64,000 nucleotides of DNA from Candidatus Kaiserbacteria bacterium RIFCSPLOWO2_01_FULL_45_25 (lineage in GTDB: Bacteria > Patescibacteriota > Minisyncoccia > Phycocordibacterales > UBA918), in contig MFLT01000003.1 of assembly GCA_001781415.1 (NCBI GenBank), positions 6,672 through 70,671 on the forward strand, in the 5' to 3' direction. The notes beneath the pieces are model-generated. The model saw only the letters and a program-made list of their open reading frames with translations. It was not told the DNA's origin and did not search any database. Positions within the stretch are counted from its first letter, which is position 1; the number at the start of each line of letters is the position of its first letter. This document shows positions 3,782-58,166 of this stretch, piece by piece. The position numbers were made by a program, and so were the translations under genes.

Positions 3782-4025
3782 CAGAAAATGACCACTCCTT
3801 TCAGGAGTGGTCATTTTGTGCCTCGGGAGCAAGCAAATAATTTTGCTTGCGTAGGGGGTCGAAAACCGCAGCGATGCCGTAGGCGAGCGAGGTGGGGTCG
3901 AGAGTACTTAGCAGAATCTGAGCTTGCGAAAGATTATGCTTAGTAACTCGTGACCGACCCATCTCCAATTATATATCTGTGACCGACCCCTGTCTTTCCA
4001 CCACCTGACCGACCCATCTCCAGCC
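3782..4025 (+). repeat. tRNA-linked composite repeat element, copy A
   Basis: Terminator palindrome aaaatgaccactcc..ggagtggtcatttt, then an inverted copy of the tRNA 3' end (gtgcctcgggag). A second palindrome and inverted T-arm (gtagggggtcgaa) follow. Then the conserved core ccgcagcgatgccgtaggcgagcgaggtggggtcgagagtacttagcagaatctgagc...tacttagtaactcgtgaccg. It ends in three degenerate direct copies of gaccgaccc(a/c)tctcc, matching the tRNA T-loop/3' end. Confidence 0.6.
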
Positions 4026-4613: not shown

Positions 4614-5531
4614 GTGTGCTATATTCCCCCTATGTCAAAGCCCAAAGTCATTGTAATTCTCGGACCAACCGCGTCTGGAAAGACTGCGCTATCTATCGAA
4701 CTCGCCAAACTCGTTGACGGCGAGGTGATTTCGGCTGACTCCCGCCAAGTATACAAAGGCCTCGATATCGGTTCAGGCAAAGTAACTGAGGCAGAGATGC
4801 AGGGCATCCCCCACCATCTCATTGATATCGCCAACCCAGAACAACGTTACAGTGGAGCGGACTTCGTCAATGATGCCAAGGCCGCTATCGCAGACATTGT
4901 ATCTCGCGGCAAAGTACCTATCATTGCTGGTGGTACCTTCTTCTACACCGACCTCCTCCGTGGCCGACTCCAGACAGCGAGTGTGCCACCGAACCTCCCC
5001 CTCCAAGCTGAGTTAGAGAAACTATCTACAGAAGAACTATTGGCGAAACTTGAAGCGGCCGACCCAATCCGGGCGGCCAATATCGAACAAGGTAACCGAC
5101 GAAGACTTGTCCGCGCTCTTGAGATAGTTGCTACATTAGGGCACGTACCTGTACCAGAGACTCCAGATAGTGAATTTGATTTCTTGGTCTTTGGTATCAA
5201 AATTGATCGAGAGACTTTGTACAAGCGAATTGAGATTCGCCTCCATGACCGCCTAGAGAACGGTATGCAAGAAGAAGTAACTAATCTTCTAACTAATGGC
5301 GTTGATCCGCAGCGCCTGATTGATTTTGGACTAGAATACCGCTACCTCACCCTACGCCAACATGAGACGTTAACTTATGAAGAAATGGTTGAACAGCTAT
5401 TTGCCAAACTTCGGCAGTTTGCCAAGCGGCAATTGACTTGGCTCAAGCGTGACGAGGAGATTATCTGGAAAGAATTTCCAGTCAAAGGAACTGACCTCCT
5501 ACCTGAAACGGAAGCTTTTCTTAAGAAGTAA
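4614..5531 (+). CDS. miaA: tRNA dimethylallyltransferase (likely start at MSKPKV, ~4632)
   Basis: P-loop VIVILGPTASGKT followed by ISADSRQVYKGLDIGSGK, the MiaA signature. Confidence 0.9.
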   Translation: MCYIPPMSKPKVIVILGPTASGKTALSIELAKLVDGEVISADSRQVYKGLDIGSGKVTEAEMQGIPHHLIDIANPEQRYSGADFVNDAKAAIADIVSRGKVPIIAGGTFFYTDLLRGRLQTASVPPNLPLQAELEKLSTEELLAKLEAADPIRAANIEQGNRRRLVRALEIVATLGHVPVPETPDSEFDFLVFGIKIDRETLYKRIEIRLHDRLENGMQEEVTNLLTNGVDPQRLIDFGLEYRYLTLRQHETLTYEEMVEQLFAKLRQFAKRQLTWLKRDEEIIWKEFPVKGTDLLPETEAFLKK

Positions 5532-5713: not shown

Positions 5714-5990
5714 AAAATGAAAAACCAAAGCGTCAAGCTTTGGTTTTTCTAATTTTGCGATGGCCCACGAGGATTCGAAAGACGGAGCCGGGGACCCTTT
5801 GGGCCGGCGAGTCCGGGGAGAAAGTTCTTAACGAGCTTGCGAGTTTAGAAACTTGACCCCGAATCATCGTGGGATTAAATAGAACAAATATACTTAGTAA
5901 CTCGTGACCGCATGCGGGCCTCGCGGCACCTGCTAGATTGTGAGCATAGCGAGACAATATAACTTGGTGACCGTCAGGACGAATCCTCAT
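5714..5990 (+). repeat. tRNA-linked composite repeat element, copy B (two tandem units)
   Basis: Terminator palindrome aaaaaccaaagc..gctttggttttt, then an inverted tRNA 3' end (tgcgatggcccacgaggattcgaa). The core variant ends ...acgagcttgcgagtttagaaacttgacc and is followed by a direct copy of the tRNA 3' end (ccgaatcatcgtggg). A second unit ends ...atatacttagtaactcgtgaccg. Confidence 0.55.
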
Positions 5991-6049: not shown

Positions 6050-6403
6050 TTAGAAACTACCGCGACGCCAGAGCAGATAAACTAGTGTAGCAATAGCTAT
6101 CCCAGCTAGTGGAACTGCCCACATAGCTGCATTCCACGCAGTGGAGTCAGTTGTTGCCAACAAAGCACTTTCTTCCCTACCCTGGACGACCGTACCTTGA
6201 ATCTGTCCACTACTTTGACCAGTAGCTTGCGCTGTTACTTCACCATCTATGACCGCTTCTTCATCTGTTCCAGTTGCAGAAGAAGAGCCGTCCGAAGACA
6301 ATGAACCAGTAACCTCTGAAGCAACAGCCAAATGAACAGCACTCAAAAGTGACGCTATGACTAGAAGGAGGAGTACTACAGAGTTGTTACGAATATTAGT
6401 CAT
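6050..6403 (-). CDS. Small secreted/surface protein with an N-terminal signal/TM and a C-terminal hydrophobic segment plus RRG tail (possible cell-surface sorting signal)
   Basis: N-terminal hydrophobic stretch, Ser/Thr/Gly-rich middle, C-terminal AVPLAGIAIATLVYLLWRRGSF. Confidence 0.45.
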   Translation of the reverse strand: MTNIRNNSVVLLLLVIASLLSAVHLAVASEVTGSLSSDGSSSATGTDEEAVIDGEVTAQATGQSSGQIQGTVVQGREESALLATTDSTAWNAAMWAVPLAGIAIATLVYLLWRRGSF

Positions 6404-11514: not shown

Positions 11515-11935
11515 CGCGTATAAAAAACCGTCCAAGCACAAGCTTGGGCGTTTTTTATTGCGTGCGCCGGAGCAAGGCATCTGCATGCCTTGCGTGAGGG
11601 ATTCGAAAAGCGCAGCGATGCCGTAGGCGAGCGAGCTGGGGTCGAGAACACTTAGTAGATTATGAGCGAAGCGAAATAATATACTTAGTGATTTGTGACC
11701 GAATCCCTCCCCTCCCGGAGCACATTAGAATTAAAAACACCAAATGGTGCTTTTTCTAATGTGCGCCGGGAAGTGAAATGTCTGGGAGACATTTCATGTG
11801 GGATTCGAAGCCCGATTGAGCTAGATTGAAAGCAAAGCGCATCAATCTAGCCAATTGGGGTACTGGTCGTGTAACGACCGAAATTCCCTCCCGGCGCACG
11901 CGTTAAAAATCCTTGCTCAACAAGGTATTTTTATA
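11515..11935 (+). repeat. tRNA-linked composite repeat element, copy C (tandem, with two direct repeats of the tRNA-Tyr 3' end)
   Basis: Terminator palindrome, then inverted tRNA 3' end (tgcgtgcgccggag), a second palindrome and an inverted T-arm (cgtgagggattcgaa). Core gcgcagcgatgccgtaggcgagcgagctggggtcgagaacacttagtag...tacttagtgatttgtgaccg|aatccctcccctcccggagcaca. A second unit ends ggtcgtgtaacgaccg|aaattccctcccggcgcacgcg, and a terminator hairpin closes the element. Confidence 0.6.
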
Positions 11936-26036: not shown

Positions 26037-26250
26037 CAAACAAAAATCATCAGCTTTGGCTGATGATTTTTGTTTGTGCCGAGAAAGAAAGCAAACTACT
26101 TTGCTTTCGGTGGGACTTGAAGCTCCGGACGATATGCTCTGCTCTGTGAAGAGCAGAGCATAAGGAGGAGCCGACCAAGAACGCGAGACTGTTTTATGAG
26201 TAAAGCGAAATAAAAGAGCCGCGATTCTGGGTCAAGTCCCCCACCCCATA
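26037..26250 (+). repeat. tRNA-linked composite repeat element, copy D (second core variant)
   Basis: Terminator palindrome acaaaaatcatcagc..gctgatgatttttgt, then inverted 3' end ttgtgccgaga, a second palindrome and an inverted T-arm ggtgggacttgaagc. Core variant tccggacgatatgctctgctctgtgaagagcagagcataaggaggagccgaccaagaacgcgagact...atgagtaaagcgaaataa...gccgcgattc, followed by a direct T-arm copy tgggtcaagtccccc. Confidence 0.55.
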
Positions 26251-26854: not shown

Positions 26855-26927
26855 CTCAGCTGGTAGAGCAGCTCCCTCTTAAGGAGAAGGTCCAAGGTTC
26901 GATCCCTTGAGGGGGCACATACGTAAA
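26855..26927 (+). tRNA. tRNA-Lys(CTT)
   Basis: Acceptor gccctct/agggggc, anticodon loop cuCUUaa, T-arm caaggttcgatcccttg. Confidence 0.75.
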
Positions 26928-27190
26928 GCAAAACACCCTATCCACATGGATAGGGTGTTTTGCTTTAGCATCTGCCCTGCGGCAGATGCGTGCGTATGTG
27001 CCGACCGCAGCGATGCCGGAGGCGAGCGAGGTGGGGTCGAGAGTACTTAGCAGAATCTGAGCTTGTGAAAGATTATGCTTAGATAAAACTTTCTGGGAGA
27101 TAGTTTTATCGTGACCACAAAAGGAGATACCCCTTGAAGGCAAGACTAACAATTATACTTAGTGATTCGTGACCACACGTGCCCCCAACA
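26928..27190 (+). repeat. tRNA-linked composite repeat element, copy E
   Basis: Palindrome aaagcaaaacaccctatcca..tggatagggtgttttgcttt, then inverted 3' end tgcgtatgtgcc. Core ccgcagcgatgccggaggcgagcgaggtggggtcgagagtacttagcagaatctgagcttgtgaaagattatgcttag, with an inserted 28-nt palindrome ataaaactttctgggagatagttttatc. A second end follows: tacttagtgattcgtgacca|cacgtgccccc. Confidence 0.6.
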
Positions 27191-27331: not shown

Positions 27332-27495
27332 CAGTAATAAAACCGCCTCTGGCGGTTTTATTGTGCGCGGGAGAGCAAAGCGCTAATGCGCTTTGCGTAG
27401 GACTTGAAAGCCGGAACGATGCCGGAGGCGAGTGAGGCGGGGTCGCGGAAAATCTCTGAAAGAGATTTATCTGTGACCAAGTCCTCTCCTTGCTT
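27332..27495 (+). repeat. tRNA-linked composite repeat element, copy F (short core)
   Basis: Palindrome aataaaaccgcc..ggcggttttatt, then inverted 3' end gtgcgcgggagag, palindrome caaagcgc..gcgctttg, inverted T-arm cgtaggacttgaa. Core agccggaacgatgccggaggcgagtgaggcggggtcgcgg...atctgtgacc|aagtcctctcc, a direct copy of the tRNA T-loop/3' end. Confidence 0.6.
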
Positions 27496-48271: not shown

Positions 48272-48702
48272 CATCGGTATTAAACAAACGACCACTTCTC
48301 AGGAAGTGGTCGTTTGTTTAATAGAAAGCAAAGAGTTTTGCTTTCGTACCGATGTGACAGTCGGAGCACTGTGAGCTTGCGAACAAGCGAGACGGGGTCG
48401 AGAGTACTTAGATTTTTATGAGTAAAACGAAATAAAAAGCTTAGTAACTCGTGACCACAGGAGTGACCACCAATGTTGCCTGCGGCCTGCTGTGAGGCCG
48501 CAGCGATGCCGGAGGCGAGCGAGGCGGGGTCGAGAGTACTTAGCAGAATCTGAGCTTTGCGAAAGATTATGCTTAGATAAAACTTTCTGGGAGATAGTTT
48601 TATCGTGGCACAAATGCAGAACTGAGTGGAGCGAAGACCTTATTTAACGAGCTTGCGAGCTTAGAAACTTGACCCCGATTCTCCGTAGGGTCACACTTTT
48701 TT
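48272..48702 (+). repeat. tRNA-linked composite repeat element, copy H (two tandem cores)
   Basis: Two palindromes, then the inverted 3' end gtaccgatgtgac. Core 1 ...gagacggggtcgagagtacttag...atgagtaaaacgaaataaaaagcttagtaactcgtgacc. Core 2 ccgcagcgatgccggaggcgagcgaggcggggtcgagagtacttagcagaatctgagc..., with the same inserted 28-nt palindrome as copy E. Ends ...gcgagcttagaaacttgacc|ccgattctccgtagggtcaca (direct tRNA 3'-end copy), then a T-run. Confidence 0.6.
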
Positions 48703-55229: not shown

Positions 55230-55305
55230 GTCCGATTAGCTCAGCTGGTAGAGCGCTTCGTCGACATCGAAGAGGTCACAGGTTCAAGTCCTGTATCGGA
55301 CACCA
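55230..55305 (+). tRNA. tRNA-Val(GAC), CCA encoded
   Basis: Acceptor gtccgat/atcggac, anticodon loop ucGACau, T-arm acaggttcaagtcctgt, then a-CCA. Confidence 0.8.
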
Positions 55306-55344
55306 TTATAAAAAGCCCCGGGTGGGGCTTTTTATAATGGTGTC
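55299..55344. repeat. 46-nt perfect palindrome spanning the tRNA-Val 3' end and its terminator (left boundary of the islet)
   Basis: gacaccattataaaaagccccgggtggggctttttataatggtgtc. Confidence 0.7.
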
Positions 55345-55623
55345 TTTAATTGTACCAAGTCCGAACCTGCTTCCAAAACAAATGATGTCATACGCGCCGA
55401 GCTCGTGGTGGTTTTGTACCTCTCCGTGCGCTCAACGTTCGTGGTGACGCCTCGGCCCACGCTAGCAAGCTCGCGTGGCGCACTTACAAAAAATTTTCTT
55501 ATCTTTTTATCGGCTCCTCCGCCGACACCTCCGCCGAAAGGCGAAAAGATATGGAAAAGAAATTTTTGGAGTGCGACGGCACTATCAAGGGAATACAAAA
55601 AGTGATAAAATACGAATACAACT

Positions 55624-56538
55624 ATGGAGAAATACCGACAACCAAAACAGCAATTCTTAACTGGTGCAGAGCTTCTTGAAAGGAACGAAGCGGGACGCGA
55701 ACGTTATAAATTGAAGGCTGGTGCCTATCAATTTGAGTTTGGTTTTCGGAATTTTGGAGAACACGAAGATGACTGGTTATCTCGCGCTAGTGATAGAGCA
55801 TCGGACTGGGAAACTCCGTTTACGTTTGATTATGAGCATCCAAAAGTGGCTGAATTTACAAAAAATCTTTTTCAAGGAGAAAGTAGTTTTGCAAGCCCAG
55901 AGGCAGTACGTGCGCTTGCAGACAGACTCGGACAGTTGATTAGGTCAATGGGCATAAACGAACCAGAATACAACAATAGTTTGAGTGATATTGTGACTTC
56001 TGGGAAAGGTATGTGTGATGCAAAGTCAGTACTATTTGGTTCGTTACTTGCGCGACATACAAACTTGAAAGCACAGGCTATTATTGGGCAGTACGGCAAA
56101 GTGCACGAACGAGTTTCACATCCATTTCATCACCAATGGATGCGTATTAGTGACGGAACGCATGTATATCTCTTTGACCCAATGTATAAACGATTTGCTA
56201 CTTTTGAAAATGAAGGCGATGCGTTTTATCCTCTCGATGAAGAAGATTCTCATTTCAGTAATTTGACTCCCGCTTGCTATCCAGCAGCAAAACTAATGAC
56301 ACAAATGGGCATCAGCCGTTTTGGCGGTGTACAGGTAGTGGAATCGAATAGTGGTGATAGCCATGAGATTTACGTAAGTAGCGAAGAAAGTTTACCTGTT
56401 CAATTGTCAAACAATGCAACATTTTCTTTTGAAATTGATAAAGAAAAAGAATTTGAAATATTCGATGGAGCGATAAAGACGGGTTCGGATGAAACCGCTT
56501 TATATTTTCCTATAAAGGGATTCCGAGAGTTGAAATAA
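55624..56538 (+). CDS. Transglutaminase-like cysteine peptidase-like protein (islet gene 1)
   Basis: GKGMCDAKSVLFGSLLARHTNLKAQAIIGQY...HPFHHQWMRISDGTHVYLFDPM fits the Cys-His-Asp transglutaminase-like core (G.C...a..l...lR..G..Ar...G....H.W.ev......DPt). Confidence 0.6.
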   Translation: MEKYRQPKQQFLTGAELLERNEAGRERYKLKAGAYQFEFGFRNFGEHEDDWLSRASDRASDWETPFTFDYEHPKVAEFTKNLFQGESSFASPEAVRALADRLGQLIRSMGINEPEYNNSLSDIVTSGKGMCDAKSVLFGSLLARHTNLKAQAIIGQYGKVHERVSHPFHHQWMRISDGTHVYLFDPMYKRFATFENEGDAFYPLDEEDSHFSNLTPACYPAAKLMTQMGISRFGGVQVVESNSGDSHEIYVSSEESLPVQLSNNATFSFEIDKEKEFEIFDGAIKTGSDETALYFPIKGFRELK

Positions 56539-56543
56539 AATTT

Positions 56544-56936
56544 ATGAACTTCACAGGCGTAATAATTGAAGAAAGCTTGACTGATTTGTCCATTTTGAAC
56601 GAGATAAAAATTGTTTCTACAGAAGTCGAACTAGTCACAGAAGAACATAAAACTCCATGGTTTAGTCAGTGGACTATGCACACTGTTGAAATTACACCAG
56701 AGAGAGTTGTTGGGGTTGCAGAAAAAATTAGCAAAGCCCTAGACCACACACATAATTGGTACGCGGATTTCAAAACTGATAAAGAGCACTTTGTTATTTA
56801 CCGCAACAAAATTTTTCACATCACCGACCGCTCCGACAAAGCGCAATATAACAAAGCGACCGCTTACGGTATTTCAATCGGTATTCCTGATTATCAAGTA
56901 GACTTTTCACCTCACATAACACAGTGGGAGCGATAG
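56544..56936 (+). CDS. Hypothetical protein (islet gene 2; possible partner or immunity protein, speculative)
   Basis: ORF 5 bp after gene 1; no family recognised. Confidence 0.4.
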   Translation: MNFTGVIIEESLTDLSILNEIKIVSTEVELVTEEHKTPWFSQWTMHTVEITPERVVGVAEKISKALDHTHNWYADFKTDKEHFVIYRNKIFHITDRSDKAQYNKATAYGISIGIPDYQVDFSPHITQWER

Positions 56937-56972
56937 TTATGAAAATAACCATCCTTGGAAATTGTGGAAAAA

Positions 56973-57022
56973 GACACCATTATAAAAAGCCCCACCCGGG
57001 GCTTTTTATAATGGTGTCCGAT
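56973..57022. repeat. Second copy of the tRNA-Val 3'-end/terminator palindrome (right boundary of the islet)
   Basis: gacaccattataaaaagccccacccggggctttttataatggtgtccgat. The left arm repeats the last 9 nt of tRNA-Val plus its terminator. Confidence 0.7.
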
Positions 57023-57095
57023 AAAACAAACGGGCTTACGCACCACCCTCACGCACTCCACTGACTCATATTCAATTCTAAGCTATAATTCTTAT

Positions 57096-58097
57096 ATGAA
57101 AGAACGATTTGAAACCACCTTAAAGGCAGTAGCCAAAGAAGAACTGACGGAGAATGATACTGATGCTATCGAAATGATTGAGCGCTTTGTCGATGCTGAA
57201 ACTATGGACCAAATTCGTCAGCTGCAATTAGGAAAACTAGATTTAGTTAACCAACTTAAAGAATGGCGAAAAAAGTTTTGGGAAGACGAGGAGGCGAAGG
57301 ATCACGAATCAGGGCTTGAGGATAGACCCGGTGCAAAAACTCTATATCTAAAAGATGGTGCATATCAGATATTCACCAATGGTGGAGAAACCATAACCCT
57401 CAGCAAGGGCGAAGTCATGAGCGCTAGCGAGTGGGGTTTTTGGTGGAAGTTTGATGATACCGTGCCGCGAGAAGACCAAACCGAAATCATGTCCAAGCAG
57501 GTGCGTAACTTAATTGCAGCCGAGTACGATAGGCAACTAATTGAATATGGATCTGTCGACACACTTTCGGATAATTATAAACGCGAAACATACCAAGCCA
57601 TTAAGGAGAAAAATCTTAACCTGGAGACTATGCCTTCAGGTATTCTGGCCGAAAAGATGATTACATCGCTTTTAATCAAACAAATGCATGATGACCCTTC
57701 CCTTTCATTTAGGATTAAAAGTGTTGATGTATATGAAGACGTTGAACACAAAATTGACTTCATTCTTGAATTAAAAGATTACACACGTGGCGTTAAGGTT
57801 GGAGAACCACACAGTTTTGGTATTCAATTCACACTGAACCCAGGCGCTACCGCCAAAAAAGAGCAGCAGATTGAGCGAGTAAAAAGAAACTCAATCCACG
57901 AGACAGAAGTTGATGACATCATGCTCATCACCATCCCCCTTAGTGATGTTAAGGAAAAATATGAATTGTGGGCCTCTGCCAAAAAAAGTAAGCGTGATCC
58001 TAGGGGTCCAGACAACCTCTGGTCGGAAGAGACCAAAAAAACTATTATTGAAGGACTACTAAAGCGAATTGAAGATTCACACCATCCATACGCCTAA
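57096..58097 (+). CDS. Hypothetical protein
   Basis: ORF with the downstream terminator aaagcgccgccccgattggggcggcgcttta. No family recognised. Confidence 0.45.
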   Translation: MKERFETTLKAVAKEELTENDTDAIEMIERFVDAETMDQIRQLQLGKLDLVNQLKEWRKKFWEDEEAKDHESGLEDRPGAKTLYLKDGAYQIFTNGGETITLSKGEVMSASEWGFWWKFDDTVPREDQTEIMSKQVRNLIAAEYDRQLIEYGSVDTLSDNYKRETYQAIKEKNLNLETMPSGILAEKMITSLLIKQMHDDPSLSFRIKSVDVYEDVEHKIDFILELKDYTRGVKVGEPHSFGIQFTLNPGATAKKEQQIERVKRNSIHETEVDDIMLITIPLSDVKEKYELWASAKKSKRDPRGPDNLWSEETKKTIIEGLLKRIEDSHHPYA

Positions 58098-58166
58098 CAA
58101 AAGCGCCGCCCCGATTGGGGCGGCGCTTTATAGACACTTCATCTCTTCTCTTGTATAGTTCGAGCC

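Follow-up and report, generated by a model that had tools for sequence, protein, structure and literature searches.

A strain-specific gene cassette behind tRNA-Val in a Candidatus Kaiserbacteria genome and its relatives linked to a large serine recombinase

How do the Patescibacteria (candidate phyla radiation), whose genomes are tiny, acquire accessory genes, a process that is still little understood? The question is raised by a short islet that follows a tRNA-Val gene of Candidatus Kaiserbacteria bacterium RIFCSPLOWO2_01_FULL_45_25, a groundwater bacterium of the Rifle aquifer, within a stretch of 64,000 nucleotides of contig MFLT01000003.1 (hereafter called the window). Two open reading frames (ORFs), named ORF1 and ORF2, lie there between two palindromes, the first of which begins in the tRNA 3' end. 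A sequence-only reading had proposed that they form an integrated cassette, whose attachment sequence would be the tRNA 3' end plus its hairpin, and which would carry a toxin/immunity or effector module. Comparison with related loci shows that the segment is a strain-specific gene cassette behind tRNA-Val, and that it forms the end nearest to the tRNA of an accessory array of 2.8 kb (55321-58098). On balance, the islet is probably a decayed, non-autonomous cassette belonging to a family of elements that are associated with a large serine recombinase (LSR) and target tRNA 3' ends.

Accessory DNA and palindromes at the tRNA-Val locus

Relatives of the locus were retrieved by a TsaD scan, with one genome per species, and the genes glmS (minus strand), tRNA-Val (plus strand), tsaD and valS are syntenic among them. 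In the closest relative, L031 (98% amino acid identity for GlmS and 91% for TsaD), as well as in L033 and L046, the genes ORF1, ORF2 and ORF3 (the latter being a third gene of the array, downstream of the islet) are missing at the glmS/tRNA-Val/tsaD locus according to tblastn and blastn searches. Nucleotide homology between the window and L031 breaks at 55320, within the left arm of the hairpin that follows the tRNA, and resumes at 58099, just past the stop codon of ORF3. The accessory region therefore covers 55321-58098 and includes ORF3. This comparison of the tRNA-Val/glmS locus confirms that the segment is accessory at the tRNA-Val 3' end, as first proposed, while the limits then given to the insert (55345-56972) were too narrow. 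Such an insertion at a tRNA 3' end, absent from close relatives, is a hallmark of tRNA-integrated islands. The G+C content of the islet is 0.35-0.42, compared with 0.46-0.51 for glmS and tsaD. The gap between glmS and tsaD is only ~630-760 nt in L033 and L046, where it is occupied by small non-coding units, and the interval from tRNA-Val to the tsaD promoter is an insertion hotspot.

The tRNA-Val gene itself (55230-55305, plus strand, anticodon GAC, encoded CCA) was identified by ARAGORN, by Rfam (RF00005, 66.8 bits) and by a 3'-end word search, and its 3' end, as delimited by ARAGORN and Rfam, is TATCGGACACCA. The final 7-12 nt of the gene (TATCG-GACACCA) constitute a repeated core, of which this is the first copy, in forward orientation. 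The last seven nucleotides open a perfect palindrome (55299-55344; 21-nt arms, 4-nt loop), detected by the repeat search. This palindrome is a bidirectional terminator-like hairpin, GCCCC-GGGT-GGGGC with T/A runs, lying between GACACCA and a second copy of the core, TGGTGTC, in reverse orientation (55338-55344). The repeat search revealed a second perfect palindrome at 56973-57018, which carries a third, forward copy of the core, GACACCA, and a fourth, reverse copy, TGGTGTCCGATA, comprising 12 nt of the tRNA end. The tRNA-end cores alternate in the window, with a forward copy at 55299, a reverse copy at 55338, a forward copy at 56973 and a reverse copy at 57012.

A second, near-identical copy of the palindrome had been noticed from the letters alone. 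It is indeed present, but its orientation has to be corrected, since 55294-55347 and 56970-57023 form an inverted repeat, exact over 54 nt (100% identity, repeat search). The left arm of this repeat, to which no strand is assigned, holds the palindrome 55299-55344, as supported by the repeat search, the terminator scan and the predicted fold. The right arm, likewise without strand, holds the palindrome 56973-57018, at a breakpoint that falls inside a kinase gene. The loops read GGGT on the left and ACCC on the right, the flanks read TATCG...TTT and AAA...CGATA, respectively, and a direct-repeat reading holds for the palindromic part only. The 12-nt copy of the tRNA end found on the right side (57012-57023) is oriented opposite to tRNA-Val. 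The flanking copies are thus inverted, unlike the direct attachment (att) repeat produced by classical integration, and the att-like duplication of tRNA end plus hairpin that had been envisaged is not supported. At the distal boundary, the direct repeat of the tRNA end is restricted to 7 nt (GACACCA, 56973) lying inside the palindrome, and a word search found no further copy of the 10-nt tRNA-Val end elsewhere in the window. The islet lacks both the direct distal att repeat that is the hallmark of a classical tRNA-integrated island and the integrase gene expected within such an island.

The palindromes are not a product of chance, as judged from 15-mer counts and RNA-fold z-scores. A 15-mer of the palindrome arm occurs four times, against 0.2 expected from shuffled sequence. 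The tRNA-Val gene and the left hairpin fold into a cloverleaf followed by an 18-20 bp hairpin (-56.4 kcal/mol, z -7.0 versus shuffles), and the fold of the right palindrome reaches -35.9 kcal/mol (z -9.6 versus shuffles). Both hairpins score as bidirectional intrinsic terminators in the terminator scan. The same palindrome/islet arrangement is found in 10 contigs from different samples and assemblers, which, together with ARAGORN, Rfam and the repeat search, establishes that tRNA-Val and both 46-nt palindromes are real. An assembly artefact was considered, because 54 nt corresponds to k-1 for k=55, a suspicious value, and was rejected because assemblies with k=141 and other assemblers agree. 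In one contig (L007, 7350-7395), the loop of the right palindrome is flipped to GGGT. The orientation of the loop is therefore labile and the loops carry no information.

The origin of the cassette can be traced through contig L114, which matches the window from 55338 to 56967 at 87.7% nucleotide identity (blastn), the ORF1 proteins being 95% identical. This homology starts precisely at TGGTGTC, the reverse complement of the tRNA-Val end; TGGTGTC and all the sequence to its right are therefore native to the cassette. In L114, the N-terminal part of an LSR gene lies 333 nt upstream of the cassette, on the opposite strand. Beyond ORF2, this contig carries a complete P-loop kinase gene (170 aa, AAA_17, L114:2477-2989), which starts with MRVTIIGNCGSGKST, and the far end of its cassette is a perfect inverted copy of the conserved non-coding leader that precedes ORF1, called B-like leader in what follows. 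In the window, the kinase gene is reduced to its first 10 codons (56940-56969, plus strand; the L114 blastn match ends at 56967), which read MKITILGNCG where L114 has MRVTIIGNCG, and which are followed by AAAAA-GACACC and the right palindrome. Because only these 10 codons are kept, compared with a full gene in L114, the right boundary is not the native end of the cassette but a secondary breakpoint within a gene. The window palindromes are absent from the L114 cassette, the limits of which are set by inverted copies of the B-like leader instead. An ortholog thus carries the same genes without flanking palindromes, a finding that the sequence-only reading had itself named as refuting its view of a cassette bounded by palindromes.

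These results bear directly on the model that stems from the first description, once its orientation is corrected. A circular cassette of ~1.67 kb (palindrome, B-like leader, ORF1 and ORF2) would have integrated through two palindromic att sites, a chromosomal TATCG-palindrome-CGATA and a cassette-borne AAA-palindrome-TTT, following an integron attC or folded-hairpin logic. Recombination of palindrome with palindrome necessarily gives exact inverted-copy junctions, as observed, and palindromic sites are present at 5 of the 9 tRNAs of the window. The chromosomal layout predicted by this model, TATCGGACAC-hairpin-GTGTCCGATA(A), is found at tRNA-Val in L031 and L033, with differing hairpin sequences, and the outer half of the right palindrome of the window looks like the ancestral right half of this tRNA-end/hairpin/inverted-end layout. 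The alternating cores would also correspond to the topology of an integron array read on the other strand, an argument derived partly from established integron structure. However, the gene interrupted by the right palindrome is complete in L114, and the L114 version has no palindromes and is bounded by B and its inverted copy B'. Moreover, no integron-type integrase was found among the ORFs examined in the islet and its flanks, and the palindromes are perfect, lacking the attC hallmarks (GTTRRRY cores and extrahelical bases). Neither an empty site nor a circle junction was found, though the scans concerned are uninformative, as explained below. Integration of such a circle is considered rather doubtful.

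Alternatively, the unit may never have been mobile as such. While an older island lost its distal part by deletion, palindrome-mediated template switching or fold-back repair might have produced an inverted copy of the terminator palindrome together with 12 nt of tRNA end. A local rearrangement of this kind could leave an exact inverted copy of 54 nt that ends mid-gene, the loop flip of L007 illustrates events within the palindrome at this very hairpin, and the islet contains no recombinase. On the other hand, the inverted copy of the tRNA end (GTGTCCGATAA) is found to the right of the hairpin in L031 and L033 too, and hence looks ancestral. Cores also alternate in the same way behind other tRNAs and in LSR elements, which points to a systematic mechanism and makes a purely local accident unlikely.

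Elements with a large serine recombinase at tRNA 3' ends

The element family to which the islet is compared was defined here from L014, L024 and L114. In the intact layout, a forward core is followed by arm A, the LSR gene, arm A', a reverse core, arm B, the cargo, arm B' and a final forward core. In L014-17, tRNA-Ser is followed by the LSR gene, enclosed between two 143-nt arms that are inverted copies of each other, then by B, a cargo consisting of a helix-turn-helix gene, an ORF1 homologue and an SLFN-like ATPase gene, and lastly B', the B/B' repeats being ~250 nt long. Two nested pairs of inverted repeats, 131-202 nt in length and 97.5-100% identical, are found in L014:34-6016 and in L024:998-4783, at the 3' ends of tRNA-Ser and tRNA-Lys, respectively. 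A filled/empty pair is available within one species: L024 carries an insertion of 3.7 kb precisely at the 3' end of tRNA-Lys, whereas L023, a complete genome, retains the intact site (4692-4783), which reads ...GGGCCCTCCA|CAAATCAGAC. L024 contains three copies of its core, CTCCA, the outer two forward and the middle one reverse. The LSR gene, which is intact and encodes 544 aa, lies between inverted repeats of 135 nt, and the cargo, with a second ORF2 homologue in inverted orientation, lies between inverted repeats of 202 nt. In both L014 and L024, the repeat itself encodes the last 49 residues of the LSR, so that either orientation of the segment gives a full ORF. A separate peculiarity of L024 is that its LSR ORF crosses the 3' half of the tRNA gene (998-1074) in antisense and reaches its stop codon at 974.

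The LSR or cargo segments show an opposite orientation or junction in L018 compared with L014, and in L029 compared with L028. By analogy, the islet could be an invertible, phase-variable segment of 1.6 kb, flipping between its 54-nt inverted repeats and thereby switching ORF1/ORF2 expression. It is flanked by perfect inverted repeats, related segments exist in two orientations across these assemblies, and the location of the last 49 LSR residues in the repeat is such that inversion keeps the ORF intact. In contrast, the islet has the same orientation in 10 contigs out of 10, in which a 54-nt repeat, being shorter than a read, should be resolved correctly; both orientations of the islet were thus not seen. 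No invertase is encoded nearby, and the promoter and leader lie inside the segment, so that its inversion would entail no obvious change in expression. A phase-variable islet is accordingly considered very unlikely.

The B-like leader (55345-55623, plus strand, ~230 nt conserved) provides a sequence link between the islet and the LSR-associated elements. It was delineated through alignments and through nhmmer matches in L013-18, L028-30, L037 and L114, and in these it always immediately precedes the first cargo gene. Both ends of the cargo carry it in L014, L028 and L114, as long inverted repeats that are perfect or nearly so. Positions 55338-55623 of the window are homologous to L114 863-1160, to the B/B' repeats of L014, to the arms of L028 and to L037. 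The window displays the succession that characterizes the LSR-element family, namely a reverse-complement core followed by the B-like leader and cargo, while nhmmer detects a single B-like copy there and the closing B' is lacking. Three motifs are conserved in the leader: GTCCGAACC, similar to a reverse-complemented tRNA T-arm; ACGCGCCGAGCNCGTGGTGG; and a long hairpin whose loop is C-rich (CCTCC). Within its conserved hairpins, eight pairs show compensatory changes among six sequences, which are too few to prove a structure. The leader and the small tRNA-linked units described below match no RNA family, since an Rfam search of the region and of the whole window returned tRNAs only, and no homology between the leader and these small units is detectable by nhmmer. 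Scans of IMG/VR with ORF2 relatives, LSR relatives and the B-like motif gave nothing, and hence no evidence of a phage origin. A variation of the leader was observed in L037 (4976-5204, minus strand), in which, relative to window 55500-55560, the stem is kept and the C-rich CCTCC loop is replaced by its reverse complement, which is G-rich. This difference reads as a small inversion inside the leader hairpin.

Genes of the ORF1, ORF2 and ORF3 families are found repeatedly just behind tRNA genes, namely those for tRNA-Ser, tRNA-Gly, tRNA-Lys and tRNA-Glu, as would fit the cargo of tRNA-targeting elements. An LSR gene with long inverted repeats abuts the tRNA end in L014-17, in L024 and partly in L114, whereas the window has only a 32-nt hairpin at this place. 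The window unit has no LSR compartment and is therefore a derivative and not a full member of the LSR family. Its first unit (55306-56972), which consists of the hairpin, TGGTGTC, the B-like leader, ORF1, ORF2 and the kinase stub, would be a truncated, recombinase-less derivative of an L114-type element. The 32-nt terminator hairpin between GACACCA and TGGTGTC stands where the LSR compartment sits in intact elements. The cargo compartment is missing its distal part, with most of the kinase gene and arm B', and what is left of it abuts the second core-hairpin-core palindrome, beyond which ORF3 forms a second cargo segment. The cassette may have arrived by site-specific recombination at the tRNA-end/hairpin site, with an LSR acting in trans. 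The second palindrome may have arisen from recombination within the palindromic site, or from its duplication, one copy being left on each side. The window unit is probably immobile now.

Several observations weigh against the interpretation of the islet as a decayed cassette of this family. No recombinase is found by Pfam among ORF1, ORF2, the kinase stub and ORF3, and a tblastn search with LSR sequences, which covered the 64-kb window only, gave no match. The 46-nt palindrome has no sequence homology to arms A/A', their equivalence being architectural only. The L114 contig is short, and its attachment to a tRNA is deduced and not seen. The orientations found in L018 and L029 suggest real inversion, but they come from two contigs only, and assembly through long repeats is possible. 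A crossover at the central dinucleotide of an LSR site does not by itself explain the GGGT and ACCC loops, but the orientation of the loop is labile, as seen in L007. A crossover of this kind placed in the loop was in fact rejected, as it cannot yield GG and CC at the two junctions; two perfectly symmetric parental sites would be needed, which was judged unparsimonious. Lastly, neither an empty site, nor a circular junction, nor an inverted isomer of the islet was found, in metagenome scans that missed the occupied site too and are hence uninformative. The occupied site is present in JGI contigs L002 and L004, so that the scanned metagenome collection evidently lacks this population.

Cargo genes and the toxin/immunity question

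The ORFs at 55624-56538 and 56544-56936 exist as initially described. The first, ORF1 (plus strand, 304 aa), likely has a predicted transglutaminase-like (papain-fold) Cys-His-Asp core. Its score against the Pfam family Transglut_core (PF01841) is 16.5 bits, below the gathering cutoff of 23, and sub-threshold matches to this family are obtained for five of nine ORF1 family members, with a best E value of 0.0054. A transitive sequence link to the transglutaminase-like superfamily is provided by P0199, the weakest member retrieved by an exhaustive ORF1 profile search, which is a bona fide Transglut_core protein (50.5 bits). Residues Cys131, His170, Trp172 and Asp185 are invariant in 25 divergent sequences including P0199, and the canonical Cys-His-Asp triad is therefore present. 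The best fold matches are N-acetyltransferases and transglutaminases. With the transglutaminase-like/papain-fold superfamily (PF01841; arylamine N-acetyltransferases; BTLCP), ORF1 shares the Cys, His and Asp residues and the His-x-Trp and Phe-Asp-Pro motifs, at the usual spacing. It differs by a score below the Pfam threshold, and by an N-terminal beta region and a 120-residue C-terminal beta domain without assigned relatives. The assignment proposed from the sequence alone thus remains plausible, given the invariant triad and the P0199 link, the evidence for it being weak but consistent. The ORF1 family is tiny, with 8 clusters in a collection of 5.8 billion proteins and 43 representatives among 1.84 billion proteins.

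The genomic setting of the ORF1 homologues is a defence-island neighbourhood. In L020:1585-6277 (and also in L019 and L021), the homologue P0007 lies directly upstream of an OLD/AriA-like ATPase gene and of a complete Septu pair (PtuA 511 bits, PtuB 197 bits), and in L014 the homologue is next to the SLFN-like ATPase gene. As a rare transglutaminase-like enzyme that travels with anti-phage genes, ORF1 is the only obvious candidate for follow-up within the islet. A further homologue, P0005, was observed in an AT-rich, unrelated organism (L115:1416-4250), as part of a gene string directly downstream of tRNA-Gly. The order there is a short-chain dehydrogenase, an Exo_endo_phos nuclease/phosphatase, a 47-aa ORF and the ORF1 homologue, and there is no B-like leader.

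ORF2 (56544-56936, plus strand, 130 aa) is a highly conserved protein that is very widespread among Patescibacteria, and its fold is of the ferredoxin-like type (ACT/CutA/Cas2-like), the match being to a generic ferredoxin-like fold only. Its family comprises more than 1000 clusters (69-87% identity, nearly all of 130 aa) found in many contexts without ORF1. ORF3 (57096-58097, plus strand, 333 aa) belongs to a family of 29 clusters with no known domain in Pfam, one homologue being located directly downstream of tRNA-Glu in L111. Searches against Pfam, PADLOC and PHROG gave no meaningful match for either ORF2 or ORF3.

The proposal that ORF2 would be the cognate partner of ORF1, in a toxin/immunity or effector/partner module, appealed to their adjacency: the two genes are on the same strand, separated by 5 nt, and both the window and L114 retain them side by side. 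The proximity of ORF1 homologues to anti-phage genes (Septu and OLD/AriA-like in L020, SLFN-like in L014) could be read in the same sense. Nevertheless, ORF1 and ORF2 are found together only in the window population and in L114, each occurring elsewhere without the other, so that the conserved co-occurrence typical of toxin-antitoxin or effector-immunity pairs is lacking. ORF1 homologues stand without ORF2 in L011, L013-22 and L115, and the breadth of the ORF2 family, with over a thousand clusters in unrelated contexts, is ill-suited to an immunity protein co-evolving with a rare toxin. No PADLOC model matches ORF1 or ORF2. The independence of the ORF2 family thus speaks against a cognate pair, a two-gene module appears most improbable, and the cargo consists of independent genes.

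Small tRNA-linked units and comparison with known systems

Small units linked to tRNA genes are found elsewhere in the window, downstream of tRNA-Leu (3783-3960), tRNA-Trp (5714-5900), tRNA-Tyr (11516-11905), tRNA-Leu (26038-26200), tRNA-Lys (26919-27110), tRNA-Leu (27333-27460) and tRNA-Glu (48273-48700). Behind nearly every tRNA, the same order of parts is observed: a terminator hairpin, the reverse complement of the last 10-12 nt of the tRNA itself, and a second conserved hairpin, AGnAAGCAAA...TTTGCTTnC. In the small units, these are followed by a reverse complement of the T-arm and by a conserved body of ~100 nt (...CGCAGCGATGCCGnAGGCGAGCGAG..GGGGTCGAGA...ACTTAGnA...GTGACC). The islet had been said to follow the same logic as these small elements, and the layout is indeed shared, with a tRNA end, a hairpin, an inverted tRNA end and a body. 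A reverse complement of a 9-nt word from their own 3' end lies within 150 nt downstream of 5 of the 9 tRNAs of the window (chance ~6e-4 per tRNA), a feature encountered among other loci in a few close relatives only. Behind tRNA-Tyr and tRNA-Glu, a direct copy of the tRNA end occurs ~385-420 nt downstream, which indicates that units stand in tandem, and the small elements at tRNA-Tyr show the same forward/reverse alternation of cores. The small units might represent non-coding mobile elements, or else convergent genes for small RNAs whose 3' ends are tRNA-like.

A broader and more speculative reading, to which only limited credence is given, is that these core-hairpin-inverted-core modules, which lie behind most tRNA genes of this Kaiserbacteria-like lineage, would be the recombination sites of an undescribed LSR-driven mobile system, in which tRNA 3' ends would anchor integron-like cassette arrays. 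The loop of one giant palindromic site would then house the LSR gene, the C-terminus of which would be encoded in the repeat. If this were true, some cassettes would carry genes, as the islet does, and others would be non-coding units of 100-400 nt, and inversion and integration would be two outcomes of a single site design.

Comparison with tRNA-targeting islands and satellites, and with the tycheposons of Prochlorococcus in particular, reveals both common and distinctive traits. Tycheposons reportedly form tandem arrays of elements, some of which have no integrase of their own. As in the present case, insertion at tRNA genes creates a strain-variable hotspot, and the cargo is small, with some genes of the defence type. 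In a minority of tycheposons, the recombinase is a large serine enzyme (10.1101/2020.12.28.424599). The elements described here differ from them by the alternating tRNA-end core and by segments bounded by long perfect inverted repeats, with, in intact relatives, an LSR gene placed between two such repeats and reading into the att core. Long inverted repeats of this kind are not described in the main text of the tycheposon paper (10.1101/2020.12.28.424599). Moreover, replication genes are absent here, and the window unit is only ~1.7 kb long, with no integrase.

Integrons comprise an attI site and palindromic attC sites, which are handled by the tyrosine integrase IntI. Their arrays share with the present locus a single primary anchor site, and cargo separated by hairpin-forming palindromes with two inverted short cores. 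The differences are nevertheless numerous. The array has glmS as its neighbour, and Pfam detected neither IntI nor any other recombinase in seven flanking and islet ORFs; the combination that marks an integron, IntI with an adjacent attI and attC sites with R''/L''/L'/R' boxes, is thus lacking. The palindromes are perfect, without extrahelical bases or a GTTRRRY core, and the cassettes carry their own leader/promoter and several genes. In addition, the recombinase of the relatives is a serine enzyme, and to our knowledge serine recombinases do not use folded single strands.

Invertible segments provide another point of comparison. These include the serine-invertase segments Gin/Hin/Cin, the C segment of phage P1, with inverted repeats of ~0.6 kb, and the yeast 2-micron plasmid, with its FLP recombinase and two long inverted repeats. 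Common features are unique segments within long identical inverted repeats, a crossover site at the edge of the repeat, and a coding sequence shared through the repeat, as for the LSR C-terminus in L014 and L024. However, the known systems do not integrate at tRNA genes, the enzyme here is an LSR and not a small invertase or FLP, and inversion of the islet was not observed. None of the systems compared combines an alternating tRNA-end core, nested long perfect inverted repeats and an LSR gene reading into its own site, and literature searches gave no description of such an architecture in Patescibacteria.

The alternating cores, the hairpins, the long inverted repeats and the LSR link together depict the DNA behind tRNA genes in this lineage as a busy exchange point. 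The islet itself, as a truncated remnant with unrelated cargo, is of moderate interest, and it is the element family and the genome-wide tRNA-end/hairpin/inverted-end modules that deserve follow-up. If the architecture is confirmed, it would represent a new design of integrative element, and possibly a source of compact tRNA-directed serine recombinases with defined sites.

A few minor features complete the description of the locus. An 88-aa ORF (55332-55598, minus strand), antisense to the B-like leader and annotated as a gene in L002 and L004, is probably spurious. The second accessory segment (57024-58098, plus strand), which is absent from the relatives at this locus, consists of a promoter-like site detected by the promoter scan (57061-57089) and of ORF3. 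The conserved right flank (58101-58159, plus strand), where homology with the relatives resumes, contains a terminator hairpin (58101-58129) and the promoter-like site of tsaD (58131-58159). A GACAC sequence at 58135 was considered as a fifth core or distal att site and was rejected, because it lies in the -35 hexamer of tsaD and is not conserved in L033. This hexamer (TAGACA, then C) does resemble the GACAC core, probably by coincidence; it is conserved in L046 and L031, as GTGACA or TAGACA, and reads TTGTCA in L033. In L031 (5700-6925), the same hotspot holds small tRNA-linked units together with a different ORF of ~285 codons, which starts near 6066.

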